Assembly: GCF_013315695.1 (NCBI RefSeq)
Contig: NZ_CP054353.1
DNA: 64,000 nucleotides
From: Escherichia coli
Lineage (GTDB): Bacteria > Pseudomonadota > Gammaproteobacteria > Enterobacterales > Enterobacteriaceae
Direction: 5' to 3' (one strand)
Shown: positions 22,899-26,355 of the stretch, one piece after another
Layout of the letters: each line of letters begins with the position of its first letter
How positions within the stretch are numbered: position 1 is the first letter of the stretch
Translations under genes and position numbers: made by a program
The notes under the pieces: generated by a model
Databases searched by the model: none
What the model was told of the DNA's origin: nothing
The model's input: the letters and a program-made list of their open reading frames with translations, nothing else

Positions 22899-22930
22899 TT
22901 CATCGCTATCCATTCAATGGATATTTTGTT

Positions 22931-22957
22931 AGCCCGATAATTTTTACGTATCGGGCT
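22931..22957. terminator. Hairpin between convergent rlmB and the IclR-family gene (candidate bidirectional terminator)
   Basis: AGCCCGATA-ATTTTTACG-TATCGGGCT, 9-bp stem with T-rich loop. Confidence 0.4.
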
Positions 22958-22974
22958 TCGAATGGAAAATACCC

Positions 22975-23775
22975 TTAATGGTGGGAATCAATACCGATAT
23001 TGATATCCTGTAAGGTGTTGAGTTCCTGTTCAATACGCGAACGTGCATTCAGCAGGATACGCGTGACATCGGCAATTTTTTCTTTTGTCGCACGAAATAC
23101 GGGTATTGAAATGCTGATGGCGGCAAGCGTTTTATTTCGCTGTTTTAAGGCAACAGCATAACATACCGTCTCCTCATTGATTTCCCTGTTATCAAATGCA
23201 TACCCATTTACTCTGGCATCCTCAAGTTGTTGGCGCAATTGTTCCAGGGTCGTAACGCTATACGATGTCATGGGAACAAAACCGTCAGGGTAGAGTTGCT
23301 GAATTTGTTGATCACTGTATTCACAGATAATGGCTTTTCCCAGCGCAGAATAGATAGCAGGCAGACGAGTCCCAATATGTGAAACCAGTTGTACGGTTTG
23401 TGCCGCCTGCACCTTATTGATATATAAAACATCTGCACCGTCCAGGATCCCCATCTGACAAACCTCATTGCACTCTTTGACAATGTTGTTCATCTCTTTG
23501 TAAACCATTTTTAACCAGTACGATCTGTCGAGGAAAGCACGGGACAGAATCGAGCAGGAGATCCCCAGATTATAAAGCTGGGTATTAGCGTCATAACTGA
23601 TGTACCGCTGTTCAACCAGCGTTTTGAGGATGGGAAAAATCGTTCCTTTCAGGATGCCTGTTTTTTCCGAAAGGTGAGTTAATGAAACACCCTGATTCTC
23701 CGCTGCCAGTGCTTCCAGTATCTCTAACACCCGGATGGTAGGCTTATGTTCCATAATGACTATTTCCCTTACCAT
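22975..23775 (-). CDS. IclR-family transcriptional regulator (accessory island)
   Basis: ORF 22975..23775, 266 aa (alternative ATG at 23754); N-terminal winged HTH (LEILEALAAENQGVSLTHLSEKTGILKGT) and C-terminal IclR effector domain; AT-rich coding sequence. Confidence 0.8.
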   Translation of the reverse strand: MVREIVIMEHKPTIRVLEILEALAAENQGVSLTHLSEKTGILKGTIFPILKTLVEQRYISYDANTQLYNLGISCSILSRAFLDRSYWLKMVYKEMNNIVKECNEVCQMGILDGADVLYINKVQAAQTVQLVSHIGTRLPAIYSALGKAIICEYSDQQIQQLYPDGFVPMTSYSVTTLEQLRQQLEDARVNGYAFDNREINEETVCYAVALKQRNKTLAAISISIPVFRATKEKIADVTRILLNARSRIEQELNTLQDINIGIDSHH

Positions 23776-23989
23776 GAGTAATGCACCATTCTAGGGAGAA
23801 TTATAATTCAAGTAAATAAACCCCCTCGCGTTCCTTGACTGCTGTTGACCCCATCAGTCCTTTTTTAGCGTGATACTGGTCATAAAACGGATAAAAAAAG
23901 AACTGTGATTGTTTTTTATGCAGGCCTCTGGCGTAATTACTCCAAATCTATCAATAACTTATGTGTATCACTTCTGTGATTGGCTAAAT

Positions 23990-24051
23990 TTGACTTATTT
24001 CTGAGGTTGGGTATACTCATTTTAGTTTGTATTTAAAAACGTTGTTTGTAT
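23990..24051 (+). promoter_or_regulatory. Candidate sigma70 promoter (TTGACT, 16 nt, TATACT) with two GTTTGTAT direct repeats just downstream (possible operator)
   Basis: TTGACT 23990-23995, TATACT 24012-24017; GTTTGTAT at 24025-24032 and 24044-24051; lies upstream of the aldolase-like gene and divergent from the IclR gene. Confidence 0.35.
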
Positions 24052-24082
24052 ATATGAACAATAAAACTATGATGAGGTAGGC

Positions 24083-24976
24083 ATGAAAAGTCGTTACATA
24101 ACCCCCGTTGTCACCATATTTGATGAACAAGGGCGAATCGATCCTGAGCAAAACACTCAGGTTTATGATTTTATTAAAAATCACGTGTCCGGGTTTGTTG
24201 TGATGGGCAGTACTGGTGAGTTTTTTTCGCTTAATATGGAAAACGCCCGCCAAATGATTAAAACCTGTAGTGAGTTTTCCCGAGGCGATATGAAGGTTTA
24301 TGCCGGAGCCAGTCGCATGGACGTCAATGAATCAATATCACTGGCCAATTACGCCTGGGAGCAAGGATTGGATGGTGTGATGATCATCAGTCCTTATTAT
24401 TTCCCTCTGGATGATGAAGCTATTTTTGATTTCTACAGTACGATTGCAAGCCAAACCCCGGCTCATATTTTTATTTATAACTTCCCGGAGAGAACCGGGT
24501 ACAGCGTATCACCAGAGATTTGTTTACGACTGGCAGATAAATATCCCAATATTATTGGTATGAAAGATACCGTCCCTGATGCTTTCCATACTGCGCAGGT
24601 TATCAATACCGTAAAGAAAAATATCCCTCATTTTGAAGTGTATGCAGGATATGACAATAATTTTGCCCACAACATACTATCTGGTGGAGATGGCTGTATT
24701 GGTGGTTTATCCAATATTGTCCCTGAATTTTTTGCCTCCTGGATGCAAGCATTCACGAATGACGATTTACTTGCAGTCGCGCAGCATCAGCAGATAGTCG
24801 ATCAACTAATGGCCGTTTACAGCGTGAATTCTCCTTTTATTCCCACTTTCAAAAAAGCCCTTCAGTTAAAGGGGGTTATTCAATCAGAACGGTGTTCTTC
24901 ACCATTTAATATACTTGATGATATTCAATCCCGGAGATTGCAGGAAATTTTATCTGTCACCGATTATTATAAATAA
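24083..24976 (+). CDS. DapA/NanA-family class I aldolase or lyase (2-keto-3-deoxy sugar-acid aldolase-like)
   Basis: ORF 24083..24976, 297 aa; GSTGEF motif, YNFP tyrosine and IIGMKDT lysine aligning with the DHDPS-family Schiff-base lysine. Confidence 0.8.
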   Translation: MKSRYITPVVTIFDEQGRIDPEQNTQVYDFIKNHVSGFVVMGSTGEFFSLNMENARQMIKTCSEFSRGDMKVYAGASRMDVNESISLANYAWEQGLDGVMIISPYYFPLDDEAIFDFYSTIASQTPAHIFIYNFPERTGYSVSPEICLRLADKYPNIIGMKDTVPDAFHTAQVINTVKKNIPHFEVYAGYDNNFAHNILSGGDGCIGGLSNIVPEFFASWMQAFTNDDLLAVAQHQQIVDQLMAVYSVNSPFIPTFKKALQLKGVIQSERCSSPFNILDDIQSRRLQEILSVTDYYK

Positions 24977-25026
24977 TATAAAACCTATAAATAGAATATC
25001 TTACCAACAGAACTAAGGATTTATTT

Positions 25027-26328
25027 ATGGCTAATATAACCCAATACGATAATCCGCTGTTGAATTCCGCAATTCAAAAATCGTGGAAACGTTTAGTACC
25101 CTTAATGTTCATAATGTATTTTGTTGCCTTTATTGATCGGGTAAATGTTGGCTTTGCCAAAGATGCAATGAAACTGGATATTGGATTATCAGAGTCGGCA
25201 TTCGCTCTCGGTGCAGGAATATTTTTCGCTGCCTATGCACTTTTCGGCATTCCAGCTAACCTGATCCTCAATAAAATCGGCGCACAAAAGTGGTTAAGTA
25301 TTACAACTGCAATTTGGGGCCTTCTCTCGGCAATGATGGGATTTGTCACCGGTGAAACGCAATTTATTATTTTGCGCTTTCTGTTAGGGCTGGGCGAGGC
25401 GGGGTTCTATCCCGGAATTTTACTGCTCGCATCCATTTATTTTCCTAACAAGGTTCGCGGATCGGTCGTGGGAATATTTGTGTTGGGGGTGCCGCTGGCG
25501 TTAACGCTCGGTTCGCCAATATCGGGAGCTTTACTTGAACTACATGGCTGGATGGGACGTCCAGGATGGTTCTGGATGTTTGTCATTGAGGGATTGCCGG
25601 CATTAGTGCTTGGTATCTTTACCTGGTTCTACCTTGATGATAATCCGACGAAAGCGCGATTTCTTACCCAGGAAGAAAAAGACGCTTTGAATAAGCAACT
25701 GGAATCTGAACGACAGAAAACAGAAACCAGTTCAGTGATTTCAGCATTGAAAAATGCCAAAGTTTGGCATCTGGCATTAATCTACGGCACCATCCAGATA
25801 TCAGTATATGGTTTAATGTTTTTCCTTCCGTCACAGGTTGCATCGCTGATGGGAGAAAGCCTTGGCTTTAAGCAGTCATTAGTCGCGGCAATACCATGGG
25901 CGTGCTCTGCTTGTGGCGTCTATTACATTCCGCGAATTGCTGACCGCAATCCTTCCCGGCGTGTGGCCATTTCGGTTATGTGTATGTTGGCTGCTGCTGT
26001 CGGCCTTGCCCTTTCCGCATTTGCGGGGCCTGTTGTGGCGATTGGTGCACTTTGTTTAAGTGCGGTTGGTTTCCTCTCAGTACAGCCAATATTCTGGACT
26101 TTCCCTCCACAACTTCTTACTGGTCCGGCACTGGCTGCGGGGATCGGTTTTTGCACCACGATGGGCGCTTTCTGCTCGTTCCTTGCTCCTCTTATCCGTG
26201 TTGAGGTTGATCGGGCAATGGATAGCAGCATCGCCGGATTGATGGCGTTGTCTGTAATTACTATCGGCTGCGCATTATTGATTGGATTGCTGCAAAAGAG
26301 CCAACAGGCAGCAAAAGCATACAGTTAA
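25027..26328 (+). CDS. MFS transporter, anion:cation symporter-like (putative sugar-acid permease)
   Basis: ORF 25027..26328, 433 aa, about 12 predicted TM helices, FIDRVNVGFA motif near TM1. Confidence 0.8.
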   Translation: MANITQYDNPLLNSAIQKSWKRLVPLMFIMYFVAFIDRVNVGFAKDAMKLDIGLSESAFALGAGIFFAAYALFGIPANLILNKIGAQKWLSITTAIWGLLSAMMGFVTGETQFIILRFLLGLGEAGFYPGILLLASIYFPNKVRGSVVGIFVLGVPLALTLGSPISGALLELHGWMGRPGWFWMFVIEGLPALVLGIFTWFYLDDNPTKARFLTQEEKDALNKQLESERQKTETSSVISALKNAKVWHLALIYGTIQISVYGLMFFLPSQVASLMGESLGFKQSLVAAIPWACSACGVYYIPRIADRNPSRRVAISVMCMLAAAVGLALSAFAGPVVAIGALCLSAVGFLSVQPIFWTFPPQLLTGPALAAGIGFCTTMGAFCSFLAPLIRVEVDRAMDSSIAGLMALSVITIGCALLIGLLQKSQQAAKAYS

Positions 26329-26355
26329 TAAGATTGAACATCTGACTGGAAGAAT

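Follow-up and report, generated by a model that had tools for sequence, protein, structure and literature searches.

The 64-kb stretch of Escherichia coli DNA analysed here (the window) carries a four-gene sugar-acid insertion between rlmB and yjfI, delimited from the RefSeq annotation of strain 042 and NCBIfam. Its gene for an IclR-family regulator lies on the reverse strand (22975-23754) and corresponds to RefSeq WP_000400400.1, annotated as an IclR family transcriptional regulator. Divergently from it, on the forward strand, runs the operon that we take to be regulated (24083-27957), which comprises genes for a DHDPS-family aldolase (24083-24976) whose closest solved relative is YagE (4.6e-48), an MFS/ACS-type transporter of the galactonate-transporter type (25027-26328) and a UxaA-family dehydratase (26356-27957). 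A terminator-like hairpin is located 3' of the dehydratase gene at 28040-28061. The divergent intergenic region between the regulator and aldolase genes measures 328 bp and has a GC content of 35%. Positions 22900-25100 are 100% identical to the corresponding DNA of strains 042, UMNK88 and others, and this segment was found in 519 of 5426 complete E. coli genomes (about 10%), including enteroaggregative 042 and porcine ETEC; one of the 519 matches to the regulator-operator-aldolase segment is a plasmid, not a chromosome. Just downstream of the island, yjfI (28148-28549) is interrupted by an in-frame stop behind codon 39 (..DYGDL*), in agreement with its labelling as a pseudogene in RefSeq for strain 042, and yjfJ (28568-29266), which also bears a pseudogene label in 042, is an intact gene in the window. 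A literature search by flanking genes and RefSeq protein accessions found no paper on the island. We considered whether it is the same as the Salmonella SL1344_3500 xylonate island and rejected this identity, since the latter is situated at glgP-glpD and has an IlvD-type dehydratase.

The regulator is built from a wHTH and an IclR_C domain, with precomputed Pfam assignments PF09339 and PF01614 on all full-length orthologues, among which the wHTH segment KGTIFPILKTL is highly conserved. Its NCBIfam matches were to BhcR, KdgR, PcaR and IclR, all of them sub-threshold (below the family cut-offs), and its PDB matches include 1mkm, an IclR C-domain and TtgV.

The original prediction for this locus proposed that a near-consensus sigma-70 promoter faces the catabolic genes and that two direct octamer repeats immediately downstream of it are an operator for the adjacent IclR regulator. 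The promoter elements are present exactly where they had been placed (23990-24017, forward strand): a -35 hexamer TTGACT at 23990-23995 is followed, after a 16-nt spacer, by a -10 hexamer TATACT at 24012-24017. The pair matches at 10 of 12 positions in our promoter scan and has the hexamers and the spacing (16-18 nt) of a sigma-70 promoter. From this geometry we infer a transcription start at the A at 24024, 7 nt after the -10. The octamer GTTTGTAT was likewise confirmed at 24025-24032 and again at 24044-24051, just 3' of the -10 and 19 bp apart from start to start; it has no other occurrence on either strand of the window. Taken by itself, the E. coli sequence does not set either the promoter or the octamer repeat apart from chance. 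Among 3000 dinucleotide-shuffled versions of the intergenic region, 332 (11%) contained a promoter match of at least 10/12 on the same strand, and over 5.8 kb we found 13 promoter-like sites where 13.6 were expected from shuffles. An exact 8-mer direct repeat within 40 nt was obtained in 825 of 5000 shuffles (16.5%), and one within the 65-nt segment after the -10 in 227 of 5000 (4.5%). The promoter and repeats rise above chance because they are conserved across genera.

We examined this conservation in 12 orthologous loci besides that of E. coli, from Morganella, Providencia, Yersinia, Cedecea, Klebsiella, Pectobacterium and metagenomes. The Morganella and Providencia loci (about 72% identity) came from scanning genomes with the regulator protein, and a protein search with contig look-ups added ten further loci (37-83% identity). 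The spacing of the regulatory elements was extracted from 12 aligned loci, namely that of E. coli and eleven of the orthologous loci, with L013 outside the set. When the divergent intergenic regions were aligned, most of the DNA was found to have diverged, and the surviving blocks were AAATTTGAC (the -35), the -10 position and a 40-bp block with both repeats. No other non-coding sequence in the 12 orthologous loci is as well conserved as the block that bears the repeats. All 12 aligned loci, which represent at least 7 genera, share a rigid module consisting of the -35, 29 nt (30 in two loci), a first box, exactly 3 nt and a second box; the distance from the second box to the start codon is variable in these loci, from 9 to more than 25 nt. 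Mean information content per column was 1.42 bits for the first box and 1.70 bits for the second, compared with 0.38-0.70 bits for spacer, gap and flanks.

This phylogenetic footprinting supports the assignment of a sigma-70 promoter facing the catabolic genes, since both TTGAC and the position of the -10 are kept. TTGAC is invariant in 9 representative loci (2.00 bits per column), and the -35 reads TTGACT, TTGACA or TTTACT in each of the 12 aligned loci. The -10 hexamers fall into two types. Four of the 12 loci have a strong -10 (TATACT in three, TAAAAT in one) with a 16-nt spacer, and none of these four has a TG extension; the other eight have a weak TTAyTT-like -10 with a 17-nt spacer, and all eight have a TGn extended -10. 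Such compensation of a weak -10 by TGn is typical of real promoters.

A repeat search showed that the repeated units extend beyond the octamers to 16 nt (24025-24040 and 24044-24059, 81% identical, spacing 19). We refer to these as predicted operator boxes 1 and 2. Box 1 (GTTTGTATTTAAAAAC, 24025-24040) is an imperfect 16-bp palindrome with 12 of 16 positions self-complementary, and box 2 (GTTTGTATATATGAAC, 24044-24059), which was flagged as a palindrome by the repeat search, is also an imperfect 16-bp palindrome. Across loci, the self-complementarity of box 2 ranges from 12 to 16 of 16, and the perfect palindrome GTTTGTATATACAAAC occurs as box 2 in locus L006 and in the Pectobacterium locus L010. 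The symmetrised consensus of the boxes is the 16-bp palindrome GTTyrTATATAyrAAC. Cedecea and K. oxytoca have the GTTTGTAT half of box 1 on the opposite strand (..ATACAAAC), and Yersinia box 2, GTTCATATATACGAAT, is approximately the reverse complement of the E. coli box. Since the orientation of the half-site flips between genera, the conserved unit is the two-fold symmetric 16-mer and not a direct repeat of an octamer. The two repeats are where they were said to be, and in E. coli they are simply the left half-sites of two tandem 16-bp palindromes. Similarly, the operator segment had been placed rightly, and only its end at 24051 was set too short, because box 2 runs to 24059. Flipping half-sites together with palindromy are as expected for a dimeric wHTH protein. 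The boxes begin 7 nt after the -10 and span about +2 to +36 of the predicted start, with their centres at about +9 and +28, 19 bp apart.

Two other readings of the box sequences were rejected. The central TATATA is similar to that of a LexA-like box, but LexA needs CTG-N10-CAG, for which the outer triplets GTT/AAC in the spacing GTT-N10-AAC are unfit. An alternative promoter within the boxes, TTGTAT-16-TATATA, has only 3/6 and 4/6 matches, lacks the final T of the -10 and was absent from the scan; it would also leave no leader in Yersinia and Pectobacterium, where 9 nt separate box 2 from the ATG.

The specificity of the boxes was assessed with a scoring matrix (maximum 25.8 bits) built from other genera only, with the E. 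coli sites left out. In E. coli, box 2 scored 24.6 bits and box 1 scored 23.2 bits, and the next best match in 64 kb scored 12.1 bits. The two boxes are also the top matrix matches in each orthologous locus. We found the module both where regulator and operon are divergent (7 loci) and where they run in the same direction (Yersinia, Cedecea, K. oxytoca and L015). Pectobacterium retains it as well, although GntP and IlvD/EDD types there take the place of the transporter and dehydratase. In that locus (Pectobacterium sp. B1J-3, L010, 5001-10489), a regulator with 55% identity, the aldolase, the promoter and the box pair are all present, and it looks as if two of the three pathway genes had been exchanged for non-homologous ones under a single regulatory module. 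Locus L013, which has a regulator with 48% identity and another gene order and which had no part in matrix training, has a pair of boxes with 19-bp spacing immediately behind TTGACA-17-TACATT; its box 1 is 23 nt from the -35, as against 29-30 nt in the aligned loci. A further regulator orthologue (L012, 51% identity) is an orphan with no catabolic genes nearby. At 4600-4660 of L012, about 360 bp upstream of the orphan's start codon, we found TTGACT and, behind it, a single 18.4-bit box, ATTAATATATACAAAC, which may be a remnant of the module.

Taken together, 23990-24059 is probably a sigma-70 promoter with a bipartite operator of the adjacent IclR-family repressor, serving the sugar-acid island. 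The predicted operator lies next to a gene for a protein with wHTH and IclR_C domains, its palindromes fall in the range of about 15-19 bp, and it co-occurs with that gene across genomes and rearrangements. The earlier attribution of the operator to the adjacent IclR regulator is thus supported at the level of sequence comparison, as the block stays with the IclR gene despite changes in orientation, gene order and enzyme type. It is because of this co-occurrence alone that we assign the boxes to the neighbouring protein, whose action as a repressor we likewise infer. In the mechanism we propose, RNA polymerase would bind TTGACT-16-TATACT and start at about 24024, the predicted position. The divergently encoded IclR-family protein would most likely occupy both palindromes, from about +2 to +36, as a dimer of dimers, which is the usual assembly in the IclR family. 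Judging from this position, the bound protein would block open-complex formation or promoter escape. An effector would then release the repressor; by analogy with XynR and YjhI, the inducer may be a sugar acid or the 2-keto-3-deoxy product of the UxaA-type dehydratase.

The wHTH and IclR_C architecture of the island regulator is shared with TtgV and with the regulators of the classical IclR operators (IclR at aceB, KdgR, AllR); the motif sequences of those operators are unrelated to the island boxes. The TtgV tetramer (PDB 2xro) reportedly occupies an operator of roughly 40 bp, and two adjacent pseudo-palindromes covering about 35 bp at the island promoter would fit a dimer of dimers. Two helical turns would exceed the 19-bp distance between the box centres by about 2 bp, so that the tetramer model needs some distortion of the DNA, and DNA distortion is said to have been described in the TtgV tetramer-DNA complex. 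The island would carry a local repressor-operator switch of a well-known kind, of which this member is so far undescribed.

The closest known system is XynR (YagI) at yagE/yagA in the K-12 CP4-6 prophage. Like the island, it has an IclR-family local regulator and an acquired operon with a DHDPS-family 2-keto-3-deoxy-acid aldolase first, together with a sugar-acid dehydratase and a transporter. The dehydratase is of the IlvD/EDD type at the XynR locus and of the UxaA type in the island. XynR is a repressor relieved by 2-keto-3-deoxy-xylonate (PMC13279387), and its published box upstream of yagE is quoted in PMC11778176 as the palindrome TGTTCAacattatAGAACA. The XynR half-site GTTC/GAAC resembles the island's GTTy/rAAC, whereas the XynR core is 17 bp (GTTC-N9-GAAC) and the island box 16 bp with a different centre. 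The XynR box holds TATAAT and so probably overlaps the -10, unlike the island boxes, which are downstream of the -10. In the K-12 segment L017, the XynR box corresponds to GTTCTATAATGTAGAAC at 2238-2254, and exactly 3 nt upstream of it we noted a second GTT..AAC element, CGTTAAATAAACGAAC (2219-2234), which gives a 19-bp period; this element is our own unpublished reading.

YjhI and the yjhIHGF operon of K-12 resemble the island in that a DHDPS aldolase, a dehydratase and a permease are encoded together with a regulator of the IclR family. YjhI is reportedly an autoinduced activator, and its effector is also 2-keto-3-deoxy-xylonate (PMC13279387). Upstream of yjhI (L016, 7867-7882) we read a perfect 16-bp palindrome, GTTCAGCATGCTGAAC, likewise unpublished, which has the same length as the island boxes and outer GTTC/GAAC. 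Unlike the island, yjhI has a single box, and this lies upstream of the regulator gene itself. Orthology of the island regulator with either protein was rejected, as it shows only 26.5% identity to XynR and 24.5% to YjhI, and the box is 16 bp with another centre; the island and XynR-locus aldolases are 31-32% identical. The island matrix returned nothing above 14 bits on the K-12 yag and yjh regions. The elements that we read upstream of yagE and yjhI in K-12 suggest that the IclR regulators of DHDPS-aldolase operons may share an operator grammar.

It is improbable that the boxes, although a real operator, belong to another transcription factor, whether global or unlinked, rather than to the adjacent IclR protein. 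The AT-rich palindrome is superficially like other enterobacterial operators, and H-NS, for which enrichment has been reported at the yagB promoter, often coats AT-rich acquired DNA. However, the box pair adjoins an IclR orthologue in every rearranged context, even the orphan in L012 still has one 18.4-bit box, and there is no further site above 12.1 bits in the 64-kb window, and the half-site resembles the box GTTC..GAAC of XynR, itself an IclR-family protein.

We regard it as about equally improbable that the adjacent IclR protein acts on the boxes as an activator or dual regulator. YjhI, which belongs to the IclR family and controls a comparable aldolase and dehydratase operon, behaves as an activator (PMC13279387), so membership of the family does not by itself fix the mode of action, and the weak -10 hexamers in 8 of the 12 loci would accord with a need for activation. 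Nevertheless, the boxes are situated at about +2 to +36, 3' of the -10, where classical activation is not expected, and the TGn extensions and invariant -35 offset the weak -10, so that the promoter looks independent of an activator. Repression by the adjacent IclR protein is thus the mode of action that we favour.

A role of the conserved block as RNA, in the form of a 5'-UTR hairpin or a leader affecting translation or stability, appears very unlikely, although the block would be transcribed from a start at about 24024 and palindromes can fold as small hairpins. Its spacing is fixed with respect to the -35 (29-30 nt) and variable with respect to the start codon (9 to more than 25 nt), and positions 4-5 and 12-13 of the boxes show no base-pair covariation, as in Yersinia box 2, where CA stands against CG. 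An Rfam search for a structured leader or riboswitch gave no match at E<=1, and the predicted fold of 24024-24100 has -8.4 kcal/mol with z = +0.59, with 139 of 200 shuffles at least as stable. With no Rfam match, no fold signal and a spacing locked to the promoter, we rejected the RNA element. The least credible reading, a functionless coincidence of a promoter-like match and a repeat in AT-rich acquired DNA, would agree with the weak single-sequence statistics (shuffles matched the promoter in 11% of cases and the repeat in 16.5% or 4.5%) but is in effect ruled out by the comparison of loci, namely the cross-genus conservation with invariant spacing amid diverged intergenic DNA and the specificity of the matrix.

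The regulator gene has a candidate promoter of its own, TTTACT-17-TAGAAT on the reverse strand at 23788-23816 (9/12 in the scan), and in each of the 7 divergent loci ATTCTAG and GTAAAT recur with an unchanging offset of 24 nt. Although a longer open reading frame extends to 23775, compared with the RefSeq start at 23754, this promoter implies a transcription start at about 23781, which favours the start codon at 23754, preceded by an AAGGGA Shine-Dalgarno sequence, over that at 23775. In the matrix scan of the window there was no box at the iclR promoter and none above 12.1 bits outside the pair, and the scan of the co-directional loci revealed no box upstream of iclR. We therefore found no support for autoregulation of the regulator gene through GTTyrTATATAyrAAC, as no box lies near its promoter.

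The intergenic region also contains a CRP-like site, CGTGATACTGGTCATA, at 23869-23884, which matches TGTGA-N6-TCACA at 8 of 10 positions (its core in E. coli is CGTGA-N6-TCATA), is centred at about -148 and is followed by an A-tract. The GTG..TCA of this site is invariant in all 7 divergent loci, where it lies 112.5-115.5 bp from the catabolic -35; this spacing is held with compensating indels in E. coli, and the distance to the regulator promoter in the same loci varies from about 95 to 113 bp. Of 13 loci, 12 have one CRP-like site with 8-9 of 10 matches, where the background frequency is 0.34 per kb. Relative to the predicted starts, its centre is at about -148 to -152 in the divergent loci, at -141 in Cedecea, K. 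oxytoca and L015, and at -126.5 in Pectobacterium; Yersinia, with a site at -69.5, is the only locus near a class I position. The site at 23869-23884 does not occupy any of the class I/II positions (-41.5, -61.5, -72.5, -82.5, -92.5), and in the window and the divergent alignment we saw no conserved -10 or -35 of a second promoter at a class I/II distance from it. Catabolite control of the sugar-acid operon through this CRP-like site is plausible. Cooperation with the operator might involve bending or looping of the DNA into a higher-order complex for repression or anti-repression, as opposed to class I/II activation. It is doubtful, though somewhat easier to credit than a foreign factor or an activator at the boxes, that the regulator represents an uncharacterised IclR subfamily (GTTyrTATATAyrAAC, two boxes, 19-bp period) and that the CRP-like site also cooperates with its operator, both together.

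The analysis provides a concrete regulatory model for an uncharacterised island, with a promoter, an operator sequence, a predicted repressor and a possible catabolite-control site, of what is otherwise textbook local regulation. The model makes the inducer of the island, and hence its substrate, directly testable, and the compact repressor-operator pair might find use as a biosensor, a purpose for which XynR and YjhI have already been employed. We also noted a 12-nt inverted repeat, CAGTCCTTTTTT and AAAAAAGAACTG (23855-23866 and 23894-23905, 92% complementary), which flanks the CRP-like site and looks unconserved because it is partly formed by an E. coli-specific 7-nt insertion, GAACTGT.
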